Positions 3,949 to 21,554 of a stretch of DNA of 24,461 nucleotides are shown here, one piece after another. The DNA lies in IMG/VR virus record IMGVR_UViG_2541047952_000002; one strand, given 5' to 3'. Position numbers and translations under genes: made by a program. Below the pieces are notes generated by a model, which was given only the letters and a program-made list of their open reading frames with translations, ran no database searches and was not told where the DNA came from. The stretch is from a virus. Lineage: Duplodnaviria > Heunggongvirae > Uroviricota > Caudoviricetes. Position 1 is the stretch's first letter; every line of letters starts with the position of its first letter.

Positions 3949-4802
3949 GCACCATCCTGAAATGGGCGGGAAATAAAACTGCCATAATGTCCGAACTGAA
4001 AAAACATCTTCCTGCTGGCCCGCGACTGGTTGAACCTTTCGCGGGTTCCTGTGCTGTGATGATGGAGACGGATTATCCCAGCTATCTGGTTGCGGATATT
4101 AATCCTGATTTAATCAACATCTATAAAAAGGTTGCCGCTGATTGTGAATCGTTTATATCTCGCGCCAGAGTTTTATTTAAGGAAGCAAACAGGGAGGTGG
4201 CTTATTACAACATAAGGCAGGAGTTTAATTACTCAACTGAAATTACTGATTTCATGAAAGCGGTATATTTCCTGTATCTCAATCGTCACGGTTACCGTGG
4301 TTTATGTCGCTATAACAAGAGCGGGCATTTCAACATTCCCTACGGTAATTATAAAAATCCGTATTTCCCTGAAAAAGAAATTCGCGCATTTGCAGAAAAG
4401 GCCCAGCGAGCAACGTTTATCTGCGCCAGCTTTGATGAAACGCTGGCGATGTTGAAGGCGGGGGATGTGGTGTATTGCGATCCGCCGTATGACGGTACGT
4501 TTTCCGGCTATCACACTGACGGCTTCACTGAAGATGACCAGTATCACCTGGCATCTGTTCTTGAACATCGGTCATCAGAAGGACATCCGGTCATTGTTTC
4601 TAACAGTGACACATCCCTGATCCGTTCGCTGTATCGCAATTTTACTCACCACTACATCAAGGCAAAACGCAGCATCGGTGTGGCAGCTGGCGAGGGTAAA
4701 TCAGCAACAGAAATCATTGCTGTTTCCGGGCCGCGCTGCTGGGTGGGATTTGATTATTCGCGTGGCGTGGATAGTTCTGCCGTGTACGGAGTACGTGCAT
4801 GA
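3945..4802 (+). CDS. dam: DNA adenine methyltransferase, Dam-like (N6-adenine MTase; GATC specificity inferred)
   Basis: ORF 3885..4802 trimmed to ATG 3945 (GGAGG 6 nt upstream, overlaps preceding stop). Motifs 'LKWAGNK', 'EPFAGS' (AdoMet binding), '[16 protein letters not shown]', 'PYFPE', 'FAEKAQ', 'VVYCDPPY' (catalytic DPPY), 'VSNSDT' are collinear with E. coli Dam as I recall it. Confidence 0.85.
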
Positions 4803-7213
4803 GTCATGCCGATATGAACAACTGCTGCGGCTTTAACGAAGCTGCCGCATCGTTCTCATGGAACAGCCCGAAAAAGGCCATTAACCCTTATCTGGACCCG
4901 GTGGAAGTTGCGCCGGTTTCTACGCTTTCAAACCTGATCACTCTGTACGCTGCCGATAACGAGCAGGAACAGCTGCGCCGTGAGGCGCTGAGTGATCAGG
5001 TCTGGGAGCGTTATTTCTTTAATGAATCCCGTGATCCTGTCCAGCGCGAAATGGAACAGGATAAGCTCATTAGTCGGGCAAAGCTGGCGCATGAGCAGCA
5101 GCGTTTTAATCCGGATATGGTCATTCTGGCGGACGTCAACGCCCAGCCCTCCCATATCAGCAAGCCGCTGATGCAACGTATTGAATATTTCAGCAGCCTG
5201 GGCAGGCCAAAGGCTTATTCCCGCTATTTGCGTGAGACGATTAAGCCATGTCTGGAACGACTGGAGCATGTCCGCGACTGTCAGCTATCCACTTCTTTTC
5301 GCTTTATGGCAAGCCATGAAGGGCTGGATGGCCTGCTTATCCTGCCTGAAATGAGTCAGGATCAGGTGAAGCGCCTGTCTACCCTTGTCGCTGCGCATAT
5401 GAGCATGTGCCTTGATGCCGCTTGTGGTGATTTGTATGCCACCGATGACGTTAAGCCAGAGGAAATCCGCAAAACATGGGAAAAGGTGGCAGCGGAAACC
5501 CTGCGTCTGGATGTTATTCCGCCTGCGTTTGAGCAACTCCGTCGGAAAAGAAACCGCCGTAAACCCGTGCCCTATGAACTCATTCCGGGTTCGTTGGCGC
5601 GTATGTTGTGTGCCGACTGGTGGTATCGGAAATTATGGAAGATGCGTTGCGAATGGCGGGAAGAGCAGTTGCGTGCTGTCTGCCTGGTCAGCAAAAAAGC
5701 ATCCCCCTATGTCAGCTATGAAGCCGTGATGCATAAACGTGAGCAGCGCCGTAAGTCGCTGGAGTTTTTCCGTTCTCATGAACTGGTGAACGAAGACGGC
5801 GACACGCTGGATATGGAAGATGTGGTAAACGCCAGCAGCAGCAACCCGGCGCATCGCCGCAATGAGATGATGGCCTGTGTTAAAGGTCTGGAGCTTATCG
5901 CGGAAATGCGCAGTGACTGCGCCGTTTTCTACACTATCACCTGTCCGTCGCGTTTCCATTCCACGCTCAATAACGGCAGACCCAACCCGACCTGGACAAA
6001 CTCGACGGTAAGACAAAGCAGCGACTATCTGGTCGGCATGTTTGCTGCATTTCGTAAGGCGATGCACAAAGCCGGATTGCGCTGGTATGGCGTGCGGGTG
6101 GCTGAGCCGCATCATGACGGTACAGTTCACTGGCACCTGTTGTGTTTTATGCGCAAAAAAGACCGCCGCGCCATCACTGCATTACTGCGTAAGTTTGCCA
6201 TCCGTGAAGACCGCGAGGAGCTGGGCAATAACACTGGGCCGCGCTTTAAGTCTGAGTTGATTAACCCGCGCAAAGGAACGCCGACAAGCTACATCGCGAA
6301 ATATATCAGTAAGAACATTGACGGGCGTGGTCTGGCTGGCGAGATCAGCAAGGAAACGGGTAAATCTCTGCGTGATAACGCTGAATACGTTAATGCCTGG
6401 GCGTCTCTGCATCGTGTTCAGCAATTCCGCTTCTTTGGCATTCCGGGGCGTCAGGCTTACCGTGAACTGCGATTGCTGGCTGGTCAGGCGGCAAGGCAAC
6501 AGGGTGACAAAAAAGCAGGTGCTCCGGTACTGGATAACCCGCGCCTTGATGCCATTCTGGCTGCTGCTGATGCTGGCTGTTTTGCCACCTACATTATGAA
6601 GCAGGGCGGCGTGTTGGTTCCCCGCAAATATCACTTGATCAGAACCGCTTATGAAATCAACGAAGAGCCGACCGCCTATGGCGATCACGGCATTCGTATT
6701 TATGGCATCTGGTCACCCATTGCAGAGGGCAAGATCTGCACTCATGCAGTGAAGTGGAAAATGGTTCGTAAGGCCGTTGACGTTCAGGAGGCGGCAGCCG
6801 ACCAGGGCGCTTGCGCCCCTTGGACTCGTGGCAATAACTGTCCCCTTGCTGAAAATTTGTACCAACAAGGGAAAGACAAATCAGCTGATGGAGATACCAG
6901 AACGGATATCACCCGCATGGATGACAAGGAGTTGCACGATTACCTGCACAGTATGAGCAAAAAAGAGCGCCGGGAACTGGCTGCAAGGTTACGCCTGGTG
7001 AAACCGAAACGGCGTAAAGACTACAAACAGCGAATTACAGACCATCAGCGACAGCAGCTCGTCTATGAACTGGAGTCCAGAGGATTTAATGGCAGCGAGA
7101 AAGAGGTCGATTTACTCCTTCGCGGCGGCAGTATTCCGTCAGGAGCAGGTCTGCGTATCTTCTATCGGAACCAGCGTTTGCAGGAAGATGATAAGTGGCG
7201 AAACCTGTATTAA
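4799..7213 (+). CDS. A: Replication initiation endonuclease gpA (HUH rolling-circle initiator)
   Basis: 804 aa. Start ATG overlaps dam stop (ATGA). HUH motif '[15 protein letters not shown]' and catalytic tyrosine motif '[11 protein letters not shown]' as in P2 A. Confidence 0.9.
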
Positions 7214-7366: not shown

Positions 7367-7555
7367 ATGCAGGACTATTTTTTGGAGTCTTTGAAGCTCC
7401 AGCGCATTGATTTTTTTCTTAAGCTTGTAGCGGCTAGTGAGTGTAGTGATGAAGAGAAGGGGCTGGCTTTGCAGTGGGTTTCTGAACTGACAGATGAACT
7501 CATGGCAAAAATCAGAAGCCACGAATACAACCGCTCAATGGATGTCATCAGCTGA
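7367..7555 (+). CDS. Hypothetical small protein (62 aa), first gene of the LexA-controlled module; possible Tum-like antirepressor component
   Basis: ORF 7265..7555 trimmed to ATG 7367 preceded by GGAGGA. Position downstream of gene A and behind a LexA box parallels 186 tum. No motif recognised. Confidence 0.4.
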   Translation: MQDYFLESLKLQRIDFFLKLVAASECSDEEKGLALQWVSELTDELMAKIRSHEYNRSMDVIS

Positions 7556-7565
7556 GGGGACTTTT

Positions 7566-7799
7566 ATGCGCATTGAAATAATGATCGATAAAGAGCAGAA
7601 GATTAGCCAGTCTACCCTGGACGCCCTTGAATCCGAGCTTTACCGCAATCTGCGCCCCCTGTATCCCAAAACGGTAATTCGTATCCGTAAAGGTAGCTCT
7701 AACGGTGTGGAACTGACCGGACTGCAACTGGACGAAGAAAGGAAGCAAGTGATGAAAATTATGCAGAAGGTGTGGGAAGACGACAGCTGGCTGCATTAA
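7566..7799 (+). CDS. dinI: DinI-family protein
   Basis: ORF 7494..7799 trimmed to ATG 7566 (GAGGGGA upstream). 'MRIEIMIDKEQKISQSTLDALESELYRNL...' and C-terminal 'KVWEDDSWL' resemble E. coli DinI ('MRIEVTIAK...TWESADDWF'). Confidence 0.7.
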   Translation: MRIEIMIDKEQKISQSTLDALESELYRNLRPLYPKTVIRIRKGSSNGVELTGLQLDEERKQVMKIMQKVWEDDSWLH

Positions 7800-7912: not shown

Positions 7913-8332
7913 CTATAAATTAGTTTTTATTAGATAGTGCCTTTGTGCTCCTGCTTTAGGGAAATCAGGTAATGACATTTGAAGTATATAACCCTGTTTT
8001 TCATAAAAGGGGAGCGCCTGGAAGCTAAATGTATCGACAAGGCCATGAATACAACCGTTCATCACACCTTCTTTCTCAGCCATGCTCATAAGTTTGCTAC
8101 CCAAACCGCCACTCCGTGTTGATTCACTCACCCAAAGATAATCAATACACAGCCATGGGCCTTTCCTGTTCGCAATTAATCCACCTACCATCTCGCCGAT
8201 TTCATTTCTGCAGTAAACACCGATCTGTCCATTTTTACTAAAATCGATAAACTGAGCATTATAGCTTCTTAGCCCAGCTAACAGTTCTTCTCTATCATAT
8301 TCAGTAACTTTATTAACTACTTGAATGTCCAT
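7913..8332 (-). CDS. GNAT-family N-acetyltransferase (139 aa), cargo gene
   Basis: Acetyl-CoA-binding-type motif '[17 protein letters not shown]' (R/Q-x-x-G-x-G/A), then 'FYEKQGY'. AT-rich, opposite strand to neighbours. Confidence 0.7.
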
Positions 8333-8548
8333 ACATATCCGTTTTAGTGATTATTTTATTTAGTGCTAAATGTTATAGATAAGTTTCCTTTGTGTTTCAA
8401 TACATTGTTGTAAATTAAATCAATTTACCATTTCCAGGTCCGTTCCTTGCTCACAGCGAACCTTTACCTTTGTTAGCTCGAATGTGTCGTATTCAAACGG
8501 TCATTCAGATACGGATTTTCACTTCCCTTAGATTGTGCATGACTATGC

Positions 8549-8680
8549 CGCATGAATCTGCATGATCGTTTGAGGATCGTTTTTGCTAAGGCCCACCAGA
8601 ACTGGCGGGCTTTTGCGTAGATCATGCAGGTGCATGAAAACCACTACATAAAGCGGGCAGGCGTGGCGGGGATACGAGCG
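8549..8680. other. Candidate cos/packaging region: inverted repeats, terminator-like hairpin and a cos-like GGCGTGGCGGGGA motif
   Basis: GGCGTGGCGGGGA (8660-8672) matches the first 13 nt of the 186 cohesive end as I remember it (GGCGTGGCGGGGAAAGCAT; P2 GGCGAGGCGGGGAAAGCAC), then diverges. Upstream are a 17-nt imperfect inverted repeat (CATGAATCTGCATGATC 8551-8567 / GATCATGCAGGTGCATG 8620-8636) and a GC hairpin plus T-run (8591-8614). Confidence 0.3.
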
Positions 8681-8803
8681 CGCGCACGTGGCTTCTAGAC
8701 ATATATCAGAGGCTTTGTTTCAATCGTAATTTATTAAATTGATTATGTTTGAATGATTTGTCATATTCTATAAGTGTTCAAGATGGCAATAAGAGGTGTC
8801 TTA

Positions 8804-10405
8804 ATGTTTGAAATTCCGAAGGCTGATGGTTCTAGCTTTGAATTGAAGTTGGCTCCTGGAGAGGTTGTTTTCTTGTTAGGACCAAATGGTTCCGGAAAGT
8901 CTTCTATAATTGATTTTCTATACAAAAAATATCCTAATAGATTTGAGAAAATAATTGCGCATAGACAAAATTGGATTCAGTCTAACAGATCTAACGTATC
9001 CAATCATGAGAGTCATCAAACATCAGGTTATATTAAGAGTTGGGATTCGCAGGAGGAGTCAAGATACAAAGATGATTATTCCGGTCGTAGAACAGAGATC
9101 TTACTGAACAAAATAATCTCTGCAGAGAATCATGCAGCCAGAACTTTTGTCAATAATTTCTCCCTAGCTTCTCGCGAGGGGCGTGGTAATTTAACTCTTA
9201 CGGAAACACCAGTTGAGAAAATTAATAGATGCCTGAATGAAGCTTTTATTAATATTACGATAAGAATAGATGATTCGGATTCTTTGTTGGTAAGTCGCAA
9301 TGGCTCTGATGAATATAGCTTGGCTCAGCTTTCTGACGGAGAAAGAAATGCAATATTTATTGCAATTGCCATTTTTACAGCCCCAGACGGCGCCTTTTTT
9401 TTAATCGATGAGCCAGAGAGGCATTTGCATCCTTCAATATCTCATTCGTTGATTAAATCTCTTTTAAATGAGCGCCCCGATTGTGGATATGTAATATCCA
9501 CACATGATTTATCTTTGCCATCAGCAGTACCTCATTCCAGAGTGTTGTTGCTGAGAGATTGCGTGTATGAAAATATGCGACCAGTTCGTTGGTATATAGA
9601 CGCAATTGACTCATTGGCGGAAATTGATGAGAGGCTTCGAGAAGACATACTTGGGTCAAGGAAAAAAATAATCTTTGTTGAGGGTAATACATCATCAAGC
9701 TTAGACCAGAAGCTATACTCGATAATTTTTCCAGGTTATTCGGTAATACCAAAAGCTAGTTGCGATTATGTCGAGCGTTCTGTGGATGGTCTGAGAGAGT
9801 CGGAAAATCTTCATCATGTAATTCCATATGGTATTATTGATAATGATAATAAACCTGAACGACAGGTTTCAAATCTTGAAATGAAAGGGGTTTATTCTTT
9901 AAATGTGCACTCAATTGAATCAATATACTATCATCCGGAATTAATTTTAAACGTAATTAATAATTATAAGGATTCTCAAAATATATCGGACCCCGATGCA
10001 TTATATGCGCAGTTGTGTGACGAGTCATTGTCCATGCTTTCCGAGCACAAAGAAAGACTATGCTGTAGAGCAATAGAGAAAGCCATTAGGTCTAAGCTAT
10101 TTTCGAATTTGCCAACTTTGAGAAGTATTGAAGCGGGGAATGATGTTAATATAAATATTAACGTTGGTGATTTTTTGAGAGAAGAAATTGTCTTTTTTGA
10201 AAACTGTCTACGTCAGCAAGATCTCATCAGTTTAGTCGAAAAATATCCAATTCGTGAAACTGCTTATATCGCTAAGGTGCATAAGCTATTGGGGTATTCA
10301 ACGCGTCAACTTTACGAGCATAATCTTTTACGCCTTGTAACGTCGAATTCTGAGGTGAAAAATATTGCCAAAAGGCTGATTGGCAATATTTGCAATGTTA
10401 TATGA
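8804..10405 (+). CDS. Solitary ABC-type ATPase fused to a Toprim-like nuclease domain (OLD-family / PARIS AriAB-like candidate anti-phage protein)
   Basis: ORF 8774..10405 (GTG) trimmed to ATG 8804, 7 nt after AAGAGG. Walker A 'GPNGSGKS', ABC signature-like 'LSDGERN', Walker B plus His 'FFLIDEPERHLHPS'. C-terminal half has 'KKIIFVEGNTSS' (Toprim glutamate) and 'GIIDNDNK' (DxD). Strongly AT-rich. Confidence 0.8.
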   Translation: MFEIPKADGSSFELKLAPGEVVFLLGPNGSGKSSIIDFLYKKYPNRFEKIIAHRQNWIQSNRSNVSNHESHQTSGYIKSWDSQEESRYKDDYSGRRTEILLNKIISAENHAARTFVNNFSLASREGRGNLTLTETPVEKINRCLNEAFINITIRIDDSDSLLVSRNGSDEYSLAQLSDGERNAIFIAIAIFTAPDGAFFLIDEPERHLHPSISHSLIKSLLNERPDCGYVISTHDLSLPSAVPHSRVLLLRDCVYENMRPVRWYIDAIDSLAEIDERLREDILGSRKKIIFVEGNTSSSLDQKLYSIIFPGYSVIPKASCDYVERSVDGLRESENLHHVIPYGIIDNDNKPERQVSNLEMKGVYSLNVHSIESIYYHPELILNVINNYKDSQNISDPDALYAQLCDESLSMLSEHKERLCCRAIEKAIRSKLFSNLPTLRSIEAGNDVNININVGDFLREEIVFFENCLRQQDLISLVEKYPIRETAYIAKVHKLLGYSTRQLYEHNLLRLVTSNSEVKNIAKRLIGNICNVI

Positions 10406-10407
10406 TT

Positions 10408-10429
10408 TTCCGCCTCCTAGGAGGCGGAA
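10408..10429. terminator. Perfect 22-bp palindrome between ATPase-Toprim gene and portal gene Q (probable bidirectional terminator)
   Basis: TTCCGCCTCCT|AGGAGGCGGAA is perfectly self-complementary. It lies 2 nt after the ATPase-Toprim stop and 10 nt before the Q stop. Confidence 0.5.
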
Positions 10430-10439
10430 TTATTGTCTG

Positions 10440-11474
10440 CTAAAGTGCGTAGCTTGAAAAAAGTATAATTTCATCAGCCAACCAGTTGTTTAATTCACTG
10501 AGCCTTTTCTGCAGCGGCATCAGCTCGTTGCGGACAAAGACGCGGCTGGCCTTTTCCACATCACCAAAGCCGCCTGTGTTGTTGGGGATAATCCCCATCA
10601 TCTGCGGCGGTACTCGGTGCGCCGCCATCATGTCATCCCGGCTCACATTCTTGATATTCAAAAACTCATCCTTTGCCGCCACCTCTGACAGTGGGATGAT
10701 CTGAATGCCGTCCTTTTTGCCGTTGGGCGAGTACATAAACAGGTTGCGAAAATTGCCCGGCCCTTTGGCGCTTTTCATGGCCTGGCGGATGTTGTTCACG
10801 TCTTCCTGATTCTGCGCGGCGTCGGTCATGTACATGATAAAACCCGCGTGGCTGCCGTTGATGTAGTACTTCCGGCGGAACAGAGTAGCGGACTCATTCA
10901 GCAAGGCGGAAGGGATGGCGGACAGGTATTCCGGCAGGCCATAAATCTCCTGGTTCAGGTCCGGCTCCATCAGGTGAAAGATGCTGCCTTTGGTGAACTC
11001 GTAGGGCTGCGTGGTCATGCCGTATTGCACAAACCAGTAAGTGTCTAGGTCGATCCCGCGGCGGGTGTATTTCGCCAGTGATGGCTCCAGCGACAGAATG
11101 CCGCCCAACCGGTTCGTCCGTTTCTCCAGGTAGGCATTACCGAACACCAGATAGTCCTGCACGAAACGGCTGAATGCCTGCTGACTTAATAGCGGGTGCG
11201 GAATGAACGTGCTGGTCAGAATGTTGCGCTTAACGGCAATCGGTGAGCTGTGATGTATGGCGGCACGGTAAGTGCGGGCCAGGCCGTCAAAGCTCACGGG
11301 CGGCTCATACCACTTATCCATCTGCACACATTCTACGTAGTCCAGGAGTTCGCGGCGGTCCAGTACCGGGATGGGGTCGCCAAAGCTGAACGCTTCGACG
11401 TGAGTTGTGTTCTTCTGCTGTACGGTTTCCTGCACTGGCGCGATGCGGGTAAGGGCGTCGTGTTCACTCATCAA
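10440..11474 (-). CDS. Q: Portal (capsid portal vertex) protein gpQ
   Basis: 344 aa, same length as P2 Q. 'FSFGDP' N-terminal region. Start overlaps terminase stop (ATGA). Divergent from the O-N-M-L operon as in P2. Confidence 0.9.
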   Translation of the reverse strand: MMSEHDALTRIAPVQETVQQKNTTHVEAFSFGDPIPVLDRRELLDYVECVQMDKWYEPPVSFDGLARTYRAAIHHSSPIAVKRNILTSTFIPHPLLSQQAFSRFVQDYLVFGNAYLEKRTNRLGGILSLEPSLAKYTRRGIDLDTYWFVQYGMTTQPYEFTKGSIFHLMEPDLNQEIYGLPEYLSAIPSALLNESATLFRRKYYINGSHAGFIMYMTDAAQNQEDVNNIRQAMKSAKGPGNFRNLFMYSPNGKKDGIQIIPLSEVAAKDEFLNIKNVSRDDMMAAHRVPPQMMGIIPNNTGGFGDVEKASRVFVRNELMPLQKRLSELNNWLADEIILFSSYAL

Positions 11475-13237
11475 AAAATCTCCACAATGTTGCTGGTATT
11501 GGCGGCTTCGCCCTGAAGCGGTTCGTTAAACAGTGCGTGCATCGTTGCCCAGGCCAAGTCTGCGTGGCTGGCTTCTTCACTGCGGCTGGCTTCGTATGTA
11601 GGGCGGTTTCCGCTGGCGGTAGTGGCGCGGCGGATAGCCATAAAGGACTGCGCAATGTCGGTGTGTCCCGCGTCAAACTCCAGACGCCGGTGGCTGATAA
11701 TGTCGTATGCCTTGAGCACCAGGGCGTTTTTGACGTTGGGGTTGTAGACAAACTCCCGCACAGCAGGAAAGAACGCTTTCACGTTCTCGTAGACACCGTG
11801 ACCGACGCCGGTTGAGTCGATACCGATATAGGTCACGTTGTACTGCTGCGTCAGCTTTTTGATAGCGTCCGCCTGGGCGCGGAAGTCCATCCCGCGCCAC
11901 TGGTGCCGCTCAAGAATGCGGAACTTGCCGCCCGGTACGGTTGGTGGTGCGACCACCACGCACCCGGCGCTGTCACCGTTCTGCGTGCCTTTCGCCGGGT
12001 CGTATCCGATCCAGACTTCGCGCCAGCCAAACGGGCGCAGCGCCAGCGCCTGAAAATCGGACCACACTTCCCAACTGTCCACCATGCACGCCTGCAGCTC
12101 GCTGAGCGGAAACACGGACGCGAGATCGTCCACAAACTCGCACATCAGCAGGTTCTGGTATTCGTCCGGGCTGTACTCCATGCGCAACTGGTCAAGGTCG
12201 AACAGGTTACAGCCGCCGCGCACCGCATCTTCCACGGTGACTATCTGGCGGTATTGCCCGTCTGCGCACAGCAGGCCGGGGGCCAGATTGCTGTGGGACA
12301 GGTCGATGTCCACCTTGTCGGCCTTGTTGCGCCCACGGTTGAACAGCGCACCGGACCAGAACGGATAAGCACTGTGTGTCAGGCTGGATGGCGTGGAAAA
12401 ATAGGTCTGTCGCCATTTCTTGTGAATAGCCATACCGGAAGCCACTTTGCGCAGCTCCTGGAATTTCGGTATCCAGAAATATTCATCCAGATACAGGTTG
12501 CCGTGATAACTCTGGGCCGTGCGGGCATTGGTGCCGAGGAAGTAAAGCGTGGCCCCGTTGGGAAGCACCATCGGATCACCTTTCAGCTCCACCTCCACTT
12601 CTTTGGCGAAGTCGATGATGTACTGCTTAAAGACGTGGGCCTGTGCCTTGCTTGCGGAAAGGAAAATCTGGTTACGTCCGGTCAGCAGAGCGTCAATCAG
12701 GGCTTCACGGGCAAAATAGAAGGTCGCGCCGATCTGGCGTGACTTCAACAGGTTGCGGATGCGGTTGGTTTTTCCGGCTTCCCACCAGTGGCGCTGGTAG
12801 TTGAACATGGAGGAATGGAAGATTTCTTCCAGCTTCTCAATCTGTTCATCGGTGAAAACGTTCTTTTCCGGCTGACGGCGCGGGCCTTTGTTGCGGTTGG
12901 CGACGTTAGGGTTTAAGTCGGCTTCGTTGCCGCCATTGTTAAACTTGCCGATCCGCGCATGGCGCTCCGACTGGCGCGCCAGCAGGTCAATCTCTTTGAA
13001 ATCTTTCCCTTCTTTGTGCTCCTTCATAATGAGCTGGCAGTAGCGTGCGGCGGTGGTGAGCTGCATCTGATCCAGCGGCCCATAGTCACCCCACTTGTCG
13101 CGTTTTTTCCAGCTGTGAACGGTTGCAACTTTCTCGCCCAGCATTTCAGCAATGCGGGCTACGCGGTATCCCTGAAAGTACAGCAGCATGGCCTGCCGAC
13201 GGGGATCGAGATCTGCGGGTGTCAGTGTGGTGTTCAT
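11471..13237 (-). CDS. P: Terminase large (ATPase) subunit gpP
   Basis: 588 aa, upstream of and translationally coupled to Q. Position and size match P2 P (~590 aa). Confidence 0.88.
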   Translation of the reverse strand: MNTTLTPADLDPRRQAMLLYFQGYRVARIAEMLGEKVATVHSWKKRDKWGDYGPLDQMQLTTAARYCQLIMKEHKEGKDFKEIDLLARQSERHARIGKFNNGGNEADLNPNVANRNKGPRRQPEKNVFTDEQIEKLEEIFHSSMFNYQRHWWEAGKTNRIRNLLKSRQIGATFYFAREALIDALLTGRNQIFLSASKAQAHVFKQYIIDFAKEVEVELKGDPMVLPNGATLYFLGTNARTAQSYHGNLYLDEYFWIPKFQELRKVASGMAIHKKWRQTYFSTPSSLTHSAYPFWSGALFNRGRNKADKVDIDLSHSNLAPGLLCADGQYRQIVTVEDAVRGGCNLFDLDQLRMEYSPDEYQNLLMCEFVDDLASVFPLSELQACMVDSWEVWSDFQALALRPFGWREVWIGYDPAKGTQNGDSAGCVVVAPPTVPGGKFRILERHQWRGMDFRAQADAIKKLTQQYNVTYIGIDSTGVGHGVYENVKAFFPAVREFVYNPNVKNALVLKAYDIISHRRLEFDAGHTDIAQSFMAIRRATTASGNRPTYEASRSEEASHADLAWATMHALFNEPLQGEAANTSNIVEIF

Positions 13238-13283
13238 GGCACAAACCTACAGCCTTGAATGAAGGCTTTCCCCGCCTGCGGTT

Positions 13284-13301
13284 TGTGTGGTTGTCGGTAC
13301 A
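13284..13301. promoter_or_regulatory. Candidate late-promoter activator (Ogr/B) binding site, TGT-N12-ACA, in the P/O divergent region
   Basis: TGTGTGGTTGTCGGTACA lies ~80 bp upstream of the O start. P2-family late promoters carry a TGT-N12-ACA dyad near -55. Confidence 0.4.
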
Positions 13302-17978: not shown

Positions 17979-18372
17979 AGCGGTGCCTTATGTCCGCAAT
18001 AACCCGGACAAACTGCATCTGTTTGTGGATAACGGTTCGCTGGTTGCTACGGGGGCCAGCTCCATGTCATGGGAGTACCGTTACACCCTGAACGTGGTGA
18101 TTGAGGATTTCAGCGGCGACCAGAATCTGCTGATGGCCCCGGTTTTGCTGTGGCTGCGGGATAACCAGCCCGATGCCATCAATAACCCGGCGTTACGGGA
18201 AAAACTATTTACCTTTGAGGTGGATATTCTGCGCAACGATGTCTGTGATATCAGCCTTAACCTGCAACTGACGGAACGTGTGCTGGTCAGCACTGACGGC
18301 AGTGTGTCGAGCGTTGAAGCGGTAGCAGAACCCGATGAACCTGAAGAAATGTGGACGGTGAAACGTGGCTGA
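17941..18372 (+). CDS. R: Tail completion protein gpR
   Basis: ORF 17920..18372 (TTG) trimmed to GTG 17941, 7 nt after AGGAG. 'SLRHALNKAV...LHLFVDNGSLVAT...YRYTLNVVIEDFSGD' resembles P2 R. Confidence 0.75.
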   Translation: MNKPQSLRHALNKAVPYVRNNPDKLHLFVDNGSLVATGASSMSWEYRYTLNVVIEDFSGDQNLLMAPVLLWLRDNQPDAINNPALREKLFTFEVDILRNDVCDISLNLQLTERVLVSTDGSVSSVEAVAEPDEPEEMWTVKRG

Positions 18373-18811
18373 ACTGCAGAAGGTGGACGACTGGCTTAGT
18401 GCCTTACTGGCGAATCTGGAACCAGTCGCAAGAAGCCGCATGATGCGCCAGCTGGCGCAGGAACTGCGCCGGACACAGCAGCAGAATATCAGGATGCAGC
18501 GCAATCCAGATGGCAGCAGTTATGAACCGCGCAAGGTCACGGCGCGCAGTAAAAAAGGCCGCATCAAACGTCAGATGTTTGCAAAGCTGCGCACCACCAA
18601 ATACCTGAAAACCGCCGCCAGCGCCGACTCTGCCTGCATACAGTTTGAAAGTAAGGTGCAGCGCATTGCCCGCGTTCACCATTATGGCCTGCGCGATCGC
18701 GTCAGCCGCAAAGGACCGGAAGTGCGTTACGCAGAGCGTCGTTTACTTGGAATGAATGAATATGCAGAAAATATAGTAAAAGATATATTGTTTCAGTTGC
18801 TAATAAAATGA
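18365..18811 (+). CDS. S: Tail completion protein gpS
   Basis: 148 aa (P2 S ~150), overlaps R stop. Position as P2 S. Confidence 0.8.
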   Translation: MAELQKVDDWLSALLANLEPVARSRMMRQLAQELRRTQQQNIRMQRNPDGSSYEPRKVTARSKKGRIKRQMFAKLRTTKYLKTAASADSACIQFESKVQRIARVHHYGLRDRVSRKGPEVRYAERRLLGMNEYAENIVKDILFQLLIK

Positions 18812-18976
18812 TGTGACTAAACCACATCATTTATTGCTGACTGAAAACCACGTCCTTTGGGCGTGGTCATCAACTGGTTTTGGCTCTACCTTATTGCCTT
18901 TGAATTTAAATGTTACAAAACTGGCAGTGGATTCTTTTTAAAGGTTTTGGTGCGCCCTTTTAGGATGTAATCAATA

Positions 18977-19001
18977 CCGCCTTCTTAGAAGGCGGGTTTT
19001 T
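18977..19001. terminator. Rho-independent terminator (bidirectional) between S and the HNH gene
   Basis: CCGCCTTCT-T-AGAAGGCGG stem-loop followed by GTTTTT. It lies 5 nt from the HNH gene stop on the other strand. Further AT-rich hairpins occur at 18808-18830 and 18846-18866. Confidence 0.55.
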
Positions 19002-19005
19002 ACTA

Positions 19006-19659
19006 CTAATCCATAAATGGTTCAAGAATTGGACCTAATTCAGCATCTTCCATAATGATCCATCTGCAAAATGATGAAAAAGCTGCGTCTCTTTTTATCA
19101 TCATCTTCATTTTTTCAATTAAGTATTTTTTTTGTTCTGTTGGAGTATCTTCTTCATAATATTCATTAATATTTTTAATTAGTTTTTGGGTTGTTTTCAC
19201 TACTTGAGTACGAAGTGCCGCAGAAGTTAATTTTTTACTCATGGTATGATCGCTATTATATACTTTCTCAAGTAACTCTGCGGTCGTCTGCGTTTCAATA
19301 TCATTAAATAGTGCTGTTACTGTTATTTTTTTTGCTTTATAAGAATATCCTGGGAGTAATTTTACTCGATCCCATACCTTTTCTTTACAGCAATCAAGAA
19401 TGTTGTCATATTTTGATAGTTTTATATTGTTACATCTGGAACATGATAGATATAAATTATCCCAATCAAAAGCTCTTTCCACATCATCACCCTTGGGTTT
19501 AAAATGTTCAATGTTTATATCCAAAGGGTTCTTTGTTTCGCAAATGTAACATTTTCCATAAAAGCATTCCTGTAGTGCTTCATGTACATCAGCACCATCA
19601 TAACGTGCTTTCTTGGAAAGAGACTTTGGTGCAGGATATGTTCTATTAACCTTGAACAT
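19006..19659 (-). CDS. HNH endonuclease (217 aa), second gene of an ATPase + HNH pair (Septu PtuB-like)
   Basis: HNH-type motif 'CYICETKNPLDINIEHFKPK...FDWDNLYLSCSRCNNIK' (C-x2-C ... H ... N ... C-x2-C-N). Start ATG overlaps the upstream ATPase stop by 1 nt (TAATG). Very AT-rich. Confidence 0.8.
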   Translation of the reverse strand: MFKVNRTYPAPKSLSKKARYDGADVHEALQECFYGKCYICETKNPLDINIEHFKPKGDDVERAFDWDNLYLSCSRCNNIKLSKYDNILDCCKEKVWDRVKLLPGYSYKAKKITVTALFNDIETQTTAELLEKVYNSDHTMSKKLTSAALRTQVVKTTQKLIKNINEYYEEDTPTEQKKYLIEKMKMMIKRDAAFSSFCRWIIMEDAELGPILEPFMD

Positions 19660-20888
19660 TATTTCTCCTGAGAATTTGCTTTTTTATATTTTAGTATCTG
19701 CATTTTTGCATAGTCAATAAATGCACTTGCATGGATGTCCATGGATTCATCTAAAGGTGCTAAGGATTGTATTATGTTATTGGCAGTTTCAATATTGTTG
19801 TTGTTAATATTGTCAATAATATCTTGAAGTTGTTCTAACTTATCTGAAAGAACTTTAGATATTGGACTTACTCCGAATAATTCTTGAAGGATGATACCAT
19901 AAGAATATGAAGACACATCACTAATTTTCGCGTTGGTCGATAGATCATAAATGATGGCATTTGTGACGGATGTAACAACAAACGGAGAATGTGTAGTGAC
20001 AATGAATTGTACTTTAGGAAAGGAGTGACTAAAAAATCTTAATATTTGCTTTTGCAAAGAAACATGTAAATGCGCATCTATTTCATCAATAAAAATAATA
20101 CCTTCGATACTGTCAGGTGTTAAACCCCACATTTCTACTCTCATTATTAAGTCAGCGTAAATTCTCAATATTGATGAGTGGCCAGAAGATAATGTTTGAA
20201 AAGTAAACTTATCTTTACCATCTTGATTGAGATAAAATTTTCCTTCGTTACTATCAAACGTTAGTAAGAGGTTTTTATCTTCAAAAAGTTCCTGCATATC
20301 AGTTTCAATTTTATCAAACCATTTCTGTATCCGCTGAGCTTTCTTATGGTCATTATCAAAAGAAATTGCATAGCTCTGAGCTGTTTTTAAACTAACCAAA
20401 TAATTCTCAAAGAAATCATCACCATCTACTTCATTAGAAAAATGTGATTTTTCATTAATTAAAGCCGATAGCCTAGGAACGGCAATTGGCGAGGTAATTG
20501 ATGCTTCACGTAGAGCTTTGTGAAATCTCAATAGTGAACGTGTTTCACCTTCTTTTTCTTTTGTTTCTATTCTAATGGCTTTTAATTGTTCAATTTTTAA
20601 TTCAATGTTTTTTATTTCTTCAGAATAAAAGTTGTAATTAACGTCGTCACGCCCGCCGTTATTTAAGTGATATTTGTAGGACTCTAACGTATTGTATAAA
20701 TTATTGATGTTATGATCATTAGGTCTATCTATCTTATTTTTAAGGAAATCATAAATAGATCTAATAAAACTAGTTTTTCCACACCCGTTACCACCAGTTA
20801 TTATGAGATTTTTACCGTCAAGCAATAAGTTTGCTGTCTTATTAGTGTATGGAATTGGAGCATAAATTTCATTTATTGATGTAAGCAT
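19659..20888 (-). CDS. ABC-type (AAA_15/AAA_21-like) ATPase (410 aa), first gene of an ATPase + HNH pair (Septu PtuA-like)
   Basis: ORF 19659..20987 trimmed to ATG at 20886-20888 (AAGGGA 7 nt upstream); the longer form would overlap the V start. Walker A 'GGNGCGKTS', 'LSSGHSSIL', Walker B plus His 'IIFIDEIDAHLHVS', 'FIVTTHSPF'. Confidence 0.8.
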   Translation of the reverse strand: MLTSINEIYAPIPYTNKTANLLLDGKNLIITGGNGCGKTSFIRSIYDFLKNKIDRPNDHNINNLYNTLESYKYHLNNGGRDDVNYNFYSEEIKNIELKIEQLKAIRIETKEKEGETRSLLRFHKALREASITSPIAVPRLSALINEKSHFSNEVDGDDFFENYLVSLKTAQSYAISFDNDHKKAQRIQKWFDKIETDMQELFEDKNLLLTFDSNEGKFYLNQDGKDKFTFQTLSSGHSSILRIYADLIMRVEMWGLTPDSIEGIIFIDEIDAHLHVSLQKQILRFFSHSFPKVQFIVTTHSPFVVTSVTNAIIYDLSTNAKISDVSSYSYGIILQELFGVSPISKVLSDKLEQLQDIIDNINNNNIETANNIIQSLAPLDESMDIHASAFIDYAKMQILKYKKANSQEK

Positions 20889-20897
20889 ATATTCCCT

Positions 20898-20915
20898 TGT
20901 ATCGTTAACAGTACA
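20898..20915 (+). promoter_or_regulatory. Candidate PV late-promoter Ogr/B box (TGT-N12-ACA)
   Basis: TGTATCGTTAACAGTACA lies ~60 bp upstream of the V start, with an A/T-rich -10 candidate (GATAATAAT) downstream. It starts 10 bp from the PtuA-like start codon on the opposite strand. Confidence 0.45.
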
Positions 20916-20975
20916 ACTACAACACTGATAATAATACAACTTATTGAGATACAGTTCACCTTTAAGGGGGGAAGG

Positions 20976-21554
20976 GTGAACGCACAATTAACCGAAATCA
21001 TGCGCCTTATCACCAACCTGATCCGCACTGGGGTAGTCACCGAAGTGGACAGGGAAAACTGGCTTTGCCGAGTGAAAACGGGCGAGCTTGAAACTAACTG
21101 GATCAGTTGGCTGACGCTGCGTGCAGGAAATGCCCGGACATGGTGGCGACCATCGGAAGGTGAGCAGGTGGTGCTGCTGAGTCTGGGGGGCAATCTGGAA
21201 ACGGCCTTTGCGCTGCCCGCTGTCTATTCGAATCAGTTTGCGCCACCGTCGACGTCGGCGGACGCCTGTGTGACAGAATATCCTGACGGTGGCTGGTTTG
21301 AATACGAACCTGCCACCGGGCGCTGGTATGTCAGGGGCATCAAATCCATGGTCATTGAGGCTGCCGATAACATCACCCTGAAAACCAGTGAGTTTGTGCT
21401 GGAGGCTGACCGCACGCGTATTAACAGCGAAGTGGTGATCAATGGTGGCGTTACCCAGGGCGGCGGAGCGATGAGCTCTAACGGGATTGTGGTTGATGCG
21501 CATCAGCATACTGGCGTCCTGAAAGGCGGCGATACAACCGGAGGCCCGGTATGA
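20976..21554 (+). CDS. V: Baseplate spike/assembly protein gpV
   Basis: 192 aa, GTG start with AAGGGGGG RBS. 'WLTLRAGNARTWWRPSEGEQV' and 'HQHTG...GGDTTGGP' resemble P2 V. Confidence 0.85.
   Translation: MNAQLTEIMRLITNLIRTGVVTEVDRENWLCRVKTGELETNWISWLTLRAGNARTWWRPSEGEQVVLLSLGGNLETAFALPAVYSNQFAPPSTSADACVTEYPDGGWFEYEPATGRWYVRGIKSMVIEAADNITLKTSEFVLEADRTRINSEVVINGGVTQGGGAMSSNGIVVDAHQHTGVLKGGDTTGGPV

Follow-up and report, generated by a model that had tools for sequence, protein, structure and literature searches.

The DNA analysed here (the window, a stretch of 24,461 nucleotides) has two GC-rich palindromes at the 3' boundaries of its two AT-rich islands, and the question they raise is whether they belong to the phage backbone, as bidirectional terminators marking where cargo is inserted, or to the cargo itself. 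The window is a segment of a P2/186-like prophage carrying two defence cassettes, recognised from its open reading frames and from Pfam matches to the portal protein, gpA, S and V. The defence genes lie in the two islands, where GC content is 0.31-0.40 compared to 0.55-0.60 in the backbone. The layout is as follows, the phage genes being assigned from ORFs and Pfam:

4799-7213: replication gene A
7494-7799: DinI-like gene
7913-8332, minus strand: GNAT acetyltransferase gene
8774-10405, plus strand: cargo 1, a fused PARIS gene AriAB (ABC-type ATPase plus DUF4435/Toprim-like domain), between cos and Q
10440-11474, minus strand: portal gene Q (stop codon 10440-10442)
listed together with Q: terminase gene P
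18365-18811, plus strand: S (tail completion), in the O-to-S late operon
19006-20987, minus strand: cargo 2, Septu, between S and V (PtuB HNH nuclease 19006-19659, PtuA ATPase 19659-20987)
20976-21554: V, after which come W, J and I

AriAB was identified by Pfam (AAA_21, 5.7e-17; DUF4435, 1.1e-9) and by PADLOC (AriAB, 8.4e-58), and Septu by PADLOC (PtuB, 5e-100; PtuA, 2e-138) together with Pfam HNH and AAA_21 matches. As the PADLOC match to PtuA begins at residue 35, the true start of this protein is probably downstream of the listed TTG. No recombinase gene was found in either cassette by Pfam and PADLOC annotation, and a consensus scan gave minus-strand promoter-like sites within island 2 and none convincingly upstream of PtuA or AriAB.

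Both palindromes were confirmed exactly where they had been reported, at the 3' end of a cargo operon and at the edge of an AT-rich island:

10408-10429: palindrome 1, TTCCGCCTCCTAGGAGGCGGAA, a GC-rich stem of 9 bp with CUAG as its loop, cassette-borne and placed between the stops of the convergent genes AriAB and Q
18977-18995, plus strand: palindrome 2, CCGCCTTCT-T-AGAAGGCGG, an 8-bp stem with a 3-nt loop, followed by GTTTTT at 18996-19001 (so that palindrome and T-run together span 18977-19001); it is helix H3 of an element of ~172 bp

Palindrome 1 is a perfect 22-nt palindrome (11+11 symmetry without a loop), of which about 0.006 would be expected by chance in 24 kb, and it lies between two stop codons, beginning 3 nt past that of AriAB (10405) and ending 10 nt short of that of Q (10440-10442). 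For palindrome 2 the distance to the PtuB stop (19006) is 10 nt and that to the S stop (18811) 166 nt, so the closeness to both cargo and backbone stops that had been described holds for palindrome 1, and for palindrome 2 with respect to PtuB, but not for palindrome 2 with respect to S. Both are stable on either strand (-16.1 to -17.0 kcal/mol, z -3.3 to -4.9, with 0-1 of 200 shuffles as stable). With stems of 8-9 bp holding 6 GC pairs they top the list of terminator-like sites in the consensus scan, which overall found 22 such sites in the region compared to 18.6 in shuffles and hence no excess.

The two hairpins resemble Rho-independent terminators in their GC-rich stems of 8-9 bp, their loops of 3-4 nt, their location 3-10 nt past stop codons and their placement between convergent units. 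They part company in their tails. Palindrome 2 is followed on the plus strand by GUUUUUAC, with a U-rich tract, and on the minus strand by the weak UAUUGAU; with its GUUUUU it has, on the plus strand, the canonical shape of an intrinsic terminator. Palindrome 1 is followed by the weak UUAUUGU on the cargo (plus) strand and by AAUCAUA on the Q (minus) strand, and is unlike an intrinsic terminator in that its U-tract is broken on one strand and missing on the other. It is plausible that both are hairpins of the Rho-independent-terminator type, a role read here from their shape. As a good U-tract is absent on both strands, palindrome 1 may be a weak terminator, or mainly an RNA-stabilising 3' hairpin, and would be at best a moderate, cargo-directed terminator.

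A core of CCGCCT...AGGCGG had been described as common to the two palindromes. Their arms do have one 6-mer (CCGCCT) in common and are alike at 8 of 9 arm positions, but relatedness does not follow from this: sharing of a 6-mer or longer is seen in 2.3% of pairs when the 42 distinct post-Q hairpins of other P2-like phages are compared, and descent from a common sequence was rejected on these arm-sharing statistics and on the separate histories of the two hairpins given below. The likeness appears to be a coincidental convergence of GC-rich stems, with no homology.

Those histories were read from 80 Q loci and 80 S loci (160 P2-like loci in all, from viral contigs), with homology limits set by megablast against phages and 5,426 E. 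coli genomes; the cassette limits given here rest on the BLAST end-points and on alignments of these 160 sampled loci. Two features delimit the cos-Q site:

8535-8685: conserved cos block of 150 bp, the left backbone anchor of the cos-Q cassette, with the cos-like GGCGTGGCGGGGATACGAG inside it at ~8660-8678
10440-10500, minus strand: recoded AT-rich 3' tail of Q (~last 20 codons), part of the cassette, as Q tails vary by cargo class

The cos block is 93-97% identical in 75 of the 80 Q loci and has sharp edges (8533-8537 and 8683-8686). The 19-mer of P2 cos had no match in the window with up to 3 mismatches allowed; the 186-like variant at ~8660-8678 was spotted by eye and k-mer, and from comparison with the P2 and 186 cos ends we take it to be a 186-type cos-like sequence. 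At the other end, megablast homology to other P2-like phages starts at 10458-10589, inside Q (stop at 10440). The backbone homology breaks ~20-110 nt ahead of the Q stop, with a similar break inside S ~70 nt ahead of its stop. The cos-Q cassette is placed by these limits at ~8686 to ~10480.

When hairpins were counted as perfect stems of 7 bp or more, with 4 or more GC pairs and no further than 85 nt from the Q stop, one was present after Q at 46 of 78 loci, compared to 0.45% of shuffles. These made up 42 distinct stems, 15 of them with A- and T-tracts on both sides and hence bidirectional in shape. The idea of terminator-type hairpins at convergent junctions of cargo and phage genes is borne out in spirit. 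In empty Q sites, where 153-169 nt separate cos from the Q stop, a backbone terminator, AGCGCCCC...GGGGCGCT followed by T6, lies between Q and cos, and this native terminator is not kept in the window. A post-Q segment (12-mer) was common to 20 of 37 locus pairs with related cargo compared to 2 of 2043 pairs with unrelated cargo, and on this comparison post-Q hairpins track cargo identity.

Palindrome 1 follows this pattern. Its exact 22-mer was found once in the viral collection, on a contig with the same cos-AriAB-Q cassette at 92% identity, and it is unchanged in the same cassette elsewhere (loci L161 and L184). At locus L185, where AriAB is 83% identical, it is replaced at the same offset from the stop codon by TTTT-CGCCCC-TAAG-GGGGCG-TTTTTTT. 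Since structure and position have been kept and sequence has changed, this suggests a terminator hairpin co-evolving with its gene, and the comparisons mark palindrome 1 as the AriAB cassette's own hairpin. They also bear on whether it could be a DNA operator for a dimeric regulator, or some other DNA-level site, as its loop-less 11+11 symmetry over 22 bp and a U-tract weak on both strands might suggest. What L185 keeps is a stem-loop at the same offset from the stop codon plus T7, and not the sequence; because structure is conserved and sequence is not, the operator prediction is contradicted, and palindrome 1 moreover sits at the 3' ends of two convergent genes, away from any promoter, which makes such a role very unlikely.

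The cassette at the S-V site has a comparable organisation, with these features:

18740-18811, plus strand: recoded AT-rich 3' tail of S (~last 23 codons), part of the cassette, as S tails are cargo-specific
18806-18832: the Septu cassette's own hairpin, AAATGATGTG-ACTAAAC-CACATCATTT, a 10-bp perfect inverted repeat overlapping the S stop codon
18831-19004, plus strand: structured noncoding repeat element of ~172 bp, between the Septu hairpin and the PtuB stop (5' edge uncertain by ~3 nt)
20898-20915, plus strand: TGT-N12-ACA dyad TGTATCGTTAACAGTACA, 61 nt upstream of V, a cassette-borne copy of the late-promoter element

Homology to 777 E. coli records stops in most of them at ~18738-18744, inside S (stop 18811), and it likewise stops there in a 99%-identical prophage of E. 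coli B. The right edge of the variable DNA is exactly the V start codon, which by the same reasoning places the S-V cassette at ~18740 to 20975. This site, which corresponds to the orf30 'TO' region of the older P2 literature, is empty at 60 of 79 loci, which have a 69-bp interval with only the TGT-N12-ACA dyad and lack palindrome 2. The remaining 19 loci fall into 11 cargo classes, each with its own AT-rich S tail; palindrome 2 was found in none of these 11, some of which carry their own hairpin past the S stop. In the stretch compared upstream of V, a differently spelled TGT-N12-ACA is seen in seven cassette classes and in the empty site, and the dyad at 20898-20915 would, from what is established for P2, be the P2-type late promoter element for the V operon. 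Other dyads in the window lie in the P/O divergent promoter region (13226-13301).

The hairpin at 18806-18832 is homologous to AACGATGTGG-CGCAG-CCACATCGTT, the sole hairpin in the sister Septu cassettes L179 and L181, and throughout L179-L181 the S and PtuB stops enclose just one hairpin, homologous to that of the window. Palindrome 2 came from elsewhere: the comparisons identify it as the 3' terminal helix of the ~172-bp element (running from TTATTGCCAACTGAAAACCACGTCCTGTGGGCGTGG... to ...CCGCCTTCTATGAAGGCGGATTTTTACT), inserted between the native Septu hairpin and the PtuB stop. One exact match of palindrome 2 in the viral collection, L162, has 180 nt in common with the window (18829-19007), and neither S nor Septu in common. 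Beyond the window the element stands at 18 distinct loci, and an nhmmer search matched it at E 2.7e-50. Among the Enterobacterales genomes that carry it are those of Entomohabitans, Franconibacter, Pectobacterium, Apirhabdus (2 copies) and a Raoultella MAG (3 copies); further copies lie in E. coli islands, in metagenomes, in an unrelated phage and in a second P2-like prophage, where a SIR2 gene is next to it. Its neighbours are unrelated housekeeping genes, such as obgE/dacB, fbaA, mutS, the atp operon, ompF/aspC and proBA. In 15 of these 18 cases its 5' end abuts a different GC-rich host hairpin plus T-run, with 0-nt spacing and in the same orientation, and its left flank is always T-rich.

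The element is present in each of the 13 E. coli genomes with this Septu cassette, and it is absent from the sister Septu cassettes (L179-L182) at the same S-V site, the PtuB proteins of which are 67-79% identical. On that comparison alone it is possible that it was deleted from the sister cassettes instead of being inserted here, but because it is present at 18 other unrelated loci, insertion is favoured. An HMM of the element had no match in the 160 sampled P2-like loci and no copy was found in the phage GenBank collection at blastn sensitivity; plasmids gave one copy. For the E. coli copy between murR and a porin gene no empty conspecific site was found, as 10 of 10 genomes with the locus were filled.

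Because backbone homology ends inside Q and inside S, both palindromes lie in variable DNA. The reading that we favour, with a probability of about 0.78, is that both are terminator-type hairpins ending two horizontally exchanged defence cassettes, and that they are part of the exchanged DNA and not of the backbone. Judging from the alignments, each cassette supplies a recoded tail of Q or S, most carry a hairpin of their own, and those at S-V also supply their own late-promoter dyad for V.

The original prediction was of bidirectional terminators that belong to the P2 backbone, are conserved there and mark fixed insertion points for cargo swaps. It was right that the cos-Q and S-V intervals are swap sites, and it could draw on how common a hairpin just downstream of Q is in P2-like phages, on the backbone terminator of empty sites and on the bidirectional shape of 15 of the 42 stems. 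However, conservation at cargo boundaries whatever the cargo, which it implied, was not seen when the 160 loci were aligned, as the stems change with every cargo class and co-vary with cargo identity. The native Q terminator of empty sites is gone from the window, empty S-V sites, the other cargo classes and the sister Septu cassettes all lack palindrome 2, and both palindromes are inside variable DNA, the backbone homology ending in Q and S. Exact-match scans found each of them only with its own cassette or at unrelated places, which ties each to its own cassette or element, and the exchanged DNA has its limits elsewhere than at the palindromes: within Q and within S, at the cos block and at the first codon of V. 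A backbone origin is on this evidence scarcely tenable. We give as little credence to the proposal that the palindromes are recombination anchors (recombinase sites or microhomology) for cassette exchange. Palindromes that form cruciforms can be recombinogenic, and papers on the P2 hotspots leave the means of exchange unsettled (PMC9122126; 10.64898/2026.02.27.708500), but an anchor must be shared by donor and recipient and each palindrome is limited to one type of cassette; because they are not common to different cassettes, they cannot supply the homology for exchange. Sequence that is in fact common at cassette edges comes from the bodies of Q and of S, from the cos block and from the start of V, and neither cassette has a recombinase gene.

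What each cassette supplies, and where it ends, leads us to infer that exchange most likely takes place by homologous recombination in the conserved flanks, that is in the bodies of Q and of S, in the 150-bp cos block and where V begins. Within the cassettes, palindrome 1 would probably end the AriAB transcript and impede convergent transcription of AriAB and Q. Palindrome 2 has a good GUUUUU tail on the plus strand and so should halt late transcripts leaving S before they enter Septu antisense, and it may also terminate the element's own RNA or read-through RNA, the V operon then being driven by the late-promoter dyad of the cassette.

Such units are close to phage morons, cargo genes with their own promoter and factor-independent terminator and deviant GC content that lie between backbone genes (the concept of Hendrix and Juhala; PMC3714127). 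The window resembles them in having AT-rich cargo that is present or absent among close relatives and a GC-rich stem-loop directly after the cargo stop that travels with the cargo, and so has the deviant GC, the presence/absence and the linkage of hairpin to cargo (20/37 vs 2/2043) looked for in morons and exchangeable cassettes. It differs in that the exchange unit is larger than a moron, adding the recoded 3' tails of Q and S and the late-promoter dyad of V, and in that palindrome 2 is, unlike a moron terminator, a secondary insertion and not the original hairpin of the Septu unit. Cargo units ending in their own terminators are expected in temperate phages, and in this respect the palindromes are an ordinary case.

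The interval from gpA through cos to gpQ is a known defence hotspot of P2-like prophages (Rousset et al. 2022, PMC9122126, where PARIS was defined), and P2/P4 hotspots have since been surveyed in a preprint (10.64898/2026.02.27.708500). The window has the same A-cos-Q locus, the same kind of cargo and the same rapid swapping. Neither text mentions terminators, hairpins or cassette edges at the hotspots, a term search of the two did not find the S-V site, and both leave the exchange mechanism open. To these papers our alignments add the places where homology breaks and the linkage of hairpins to cassettes; the only item that may be new in itself is the ~172-bp element. The P2 cos-Q and S-V exchange units can now be delimited as the recoded end of Q or S, the hairpin and, at S-V, the V late promoter, with the cos block and the start codon of V as outer bounds. 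Units of this form point to homologous recombination within conserved coding sequence as the means of swapping left open by the recent hotspot papers, and their limits matter when 'the cassette' is cloned for defence assays.

What kind of sequence the ~172-bp element might be was judged from its fold and from 20 aligned copies. It folds at -53.7 kcal/mol (z -4.05), with helices H1 (18847-18867), H2 (18953-18967) and H3 (18977-18995, palindrome 2). The 20 copies back four helices, with 96.9% of cells paired, and changes on both sides affect 6 pairs and 17 cells, levels reached by 3/500 and 0/500 shuffles, with slid controls giving at most 3. Compensatory changes are seen in 3 of the 8 pairs of H3 (for example CCACCTGC/GCAGGTGG) and the sequence of H1 is invariant across copies. 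Rfam 15 gave no match at gathering score in the whole window, and a permissive search of 18700-19100 gave a best E-value of 0.57, to unrelated eukaryotic or Gram-positive families. In the full-text literature four diagnostic sequence strings of the element had no match, and a keyword search on terminator-targeting repeats returned nothing relevant.

The element is present in multiple non-orthologous copies, with a filled site in the window and empty ones in the sister cassettes, as an interspersed repeat would be. In being noncoding, structured and multi-copy, at unrelated intergenic loci in several genera, it is like ERIC/IRU, REP/BIME, MITEs and PATEs, and it differs from them in being without terminal inverted repeats, an evident target-site duplication or an Rfam family; it has no sequence match to what we take to be the ERIC consensus. 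IS200/IS605-derived PATEs (with IS608 as the model) have subterminal hairpins at both ends and neither inverted terminal repeats nor a duplication, insert 3' of a short T-rich target and are mobilised by a Y1 TnpA. In the element, H1 lies 12-16 nt from the 5' end and H3 8-9 nt from the 3' end, with stems of 8-9 bp and 3-nt loops, the left flank is T-rich, and terminal inverted repeats and duplications are lacking, a geometry that might suit such an origin. No cognate transposase, full-length parent or autonomous partner was found. Class C group II introns insert after terminator stem-loops, and the element is like them in its target, lying in one orientation directly after terminator hairpins.

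As a tentative proposal, which we regard as possible and somewhat short of an even chance, palindrome 2 would be the terminator helix of a previously undescribed family of ~172-nt Enterobacterales elements that insert in fixed orientation directly after Rho-independent terminators (hairpin plus T-run), bring a replacement terminator and also enter phage defence cassettes; such an element would be mobile and 'terminator-tailing', or else a mobile sRNA gene, and would have neither a recognisable transposase nor inverted terminal repeats nor a target duplication. Alternatively, 18831-19004 might be mainly a small regulatory RNA gene that has been spread horizontally, with palindrome 2 as its terminator. 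Its length of ~172 nt and stable fold (z -4.05), a U-rich stretch ahead of the terminator, the compensatory changes in H2 and H3 and the absence of a conserved ORF would all suit such a gene. However, no conserved promoter-like sequence stands at the 5' end of the element and it abuts host terminators at 0 nt at 15 of 18 independent sites, because of which targeted insertion fits better than an independent gene. Several copies in single genomes and the lack of an Rfam family also speak against a mainly regulatory role, which we consider unlikely, although the sRNA-gene and transposing-repeat readings are compatible and not mutually exclusive. Directly after terminators at many loci, the element would, if confirmed as mobile, be a tidy case of safe-harbour targeting, and some unannotated 3'-UTR or sRNA sequence of enterobacterial genomes may derive from it.

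Several other identities were considered for the element and set aside. A 17-codon ORF on its plus strand is not conserved, and a minus-strand frame ending ...VDDHAQRTWFSVSNK is broken by a stop in L162, so neither was accepted as a gene. A retron ncRNA belonging to Septu was rejected: an RT gene is missing, the element is neither placed nor oriented as such an RNA would be, and it is also found at housekeeping loci. A fragment of a group II intron was also rejected, ~172 bp being far too short and the GUGYG 5' end being absent. A classical MITE was rejected on its having only local hairpins, with no terminal inverted repeats and no evident target-site duplication; the lengths of the T-runs at the two ends of the element were uncorrelated between copies.

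Across the sampled P2-like loci (L001-L160), the essential genes Q and S were found to end in ~20-25 AT-rich codons that vary by cargo class, with the protein motif retained. As the Q and S ends differ by cargo class, the hotspot cassettes bring their own recoded gene ends, and the recombination junctions fall within coding sequence. The boundary features of the window are as follows.

8535-8685: cos block of 150 bp, 93-97% conserved in 75/80 loci, with sharp edges
10440-10500, minus strand: AT-rich, cargo-specific 3' end of Q (portal), from comparison across L001-L160
18740-18811, plus strand: AT-rich, cargo-specific 3' end of S (tail completion), from the same comparison
20898-20915: TGT-N12-ACA dyad upstream of V

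On the other side of the S-V interval, the V start codon is the exact right edge of variability. In the printed sequence upstream of V (L001-L080), a TGT-N12-ACA dyad, the P2-type late-promoter element, is present in seven classes of S-V cassette as well as at the empty 69-bp site, with a spelling of its own in each; the tail operon's late promoter thus belongs to the swapped DNA.

The cos block forms an island separating two variable regions, A-cos, which holds DinI-like and GNAT genes in the window, and cos-Q, which holds AriAB. A metagenomic contig (L161, 4322-5972) carries the same cos-AriAB-Q cassette as the window with a different arrangement past cos: it lacks the DinI and GNAT genes, and sequence matching the end of gene A is close to sequence matching the integrase gene. 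The variation in A-cos is therefore independent of the cos-Q cassette. When the 90 nt 3' of the Q stop were compared between related cos-Q cassettes, compensatory changes were seen in the post-Q hairpins (L099/L101 vs L106, L093 vs L143 and L098 vs L110; for example AGGCCGA...TCGGCCT vs AGGCCGAG...CTCGGCCT), which supports selection on the stem and not the sequence of these hairpins.

The second palindrome of the window (18977-19001) is part of a larger feature.

18831-19004, plus strand: structured noncoding element of ~172 bp, with copies in L162, L167-L178 and L186-L198

It folds into one long-range helix and three local hairpins (H1-H3), ends 3' in ...GGCGGATTTTTACT, and occurs at 18 distinct loci besides the window (Enterobacterales, phages and metagenomes), where its directly adjoining 5' neighbour is nearly always a host terminator hairpin with a T-run, different each time. 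An Rfam search gave no match. The element shows neither terminal inverted repeats nor a target duplication and contains no conserved ORF, and no mobilising enzyme was identified for it.

In the window, the 3' arm of the native hairpin of the Septu cassette (AAACCACATCATTT, 18819-18832) and the 5' arm region of H1 (AAACCACGTCCTTT, 18845-18858) are 86% identical and 26 nt apart; this likeness could be chance, or microhomology bearing on the landing of the element there. An unrelated phage contig (L164, 12720-12785) has a tandem hairpin module 3' of an ORF stop (GGCCCCC-TTTTA-GGGGGCT, then CCGCCTTC-TAA-GAAGGCGG with ATTTTT), whose resemblance to the element is confined to the H2-H3 3' module (nhmmer E 1.5e-4) and which may be an element fragment or an independent double terminator. 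Within the empty 69-bp S-V interval (e.g. L009, 6445-6513), CTGCCGCCTTTCTTCTCC is similar to the left arm of the second palindrome, CCGCCTTCTT, but lacks a complementary arm, and this resemblance is probably due to chance.
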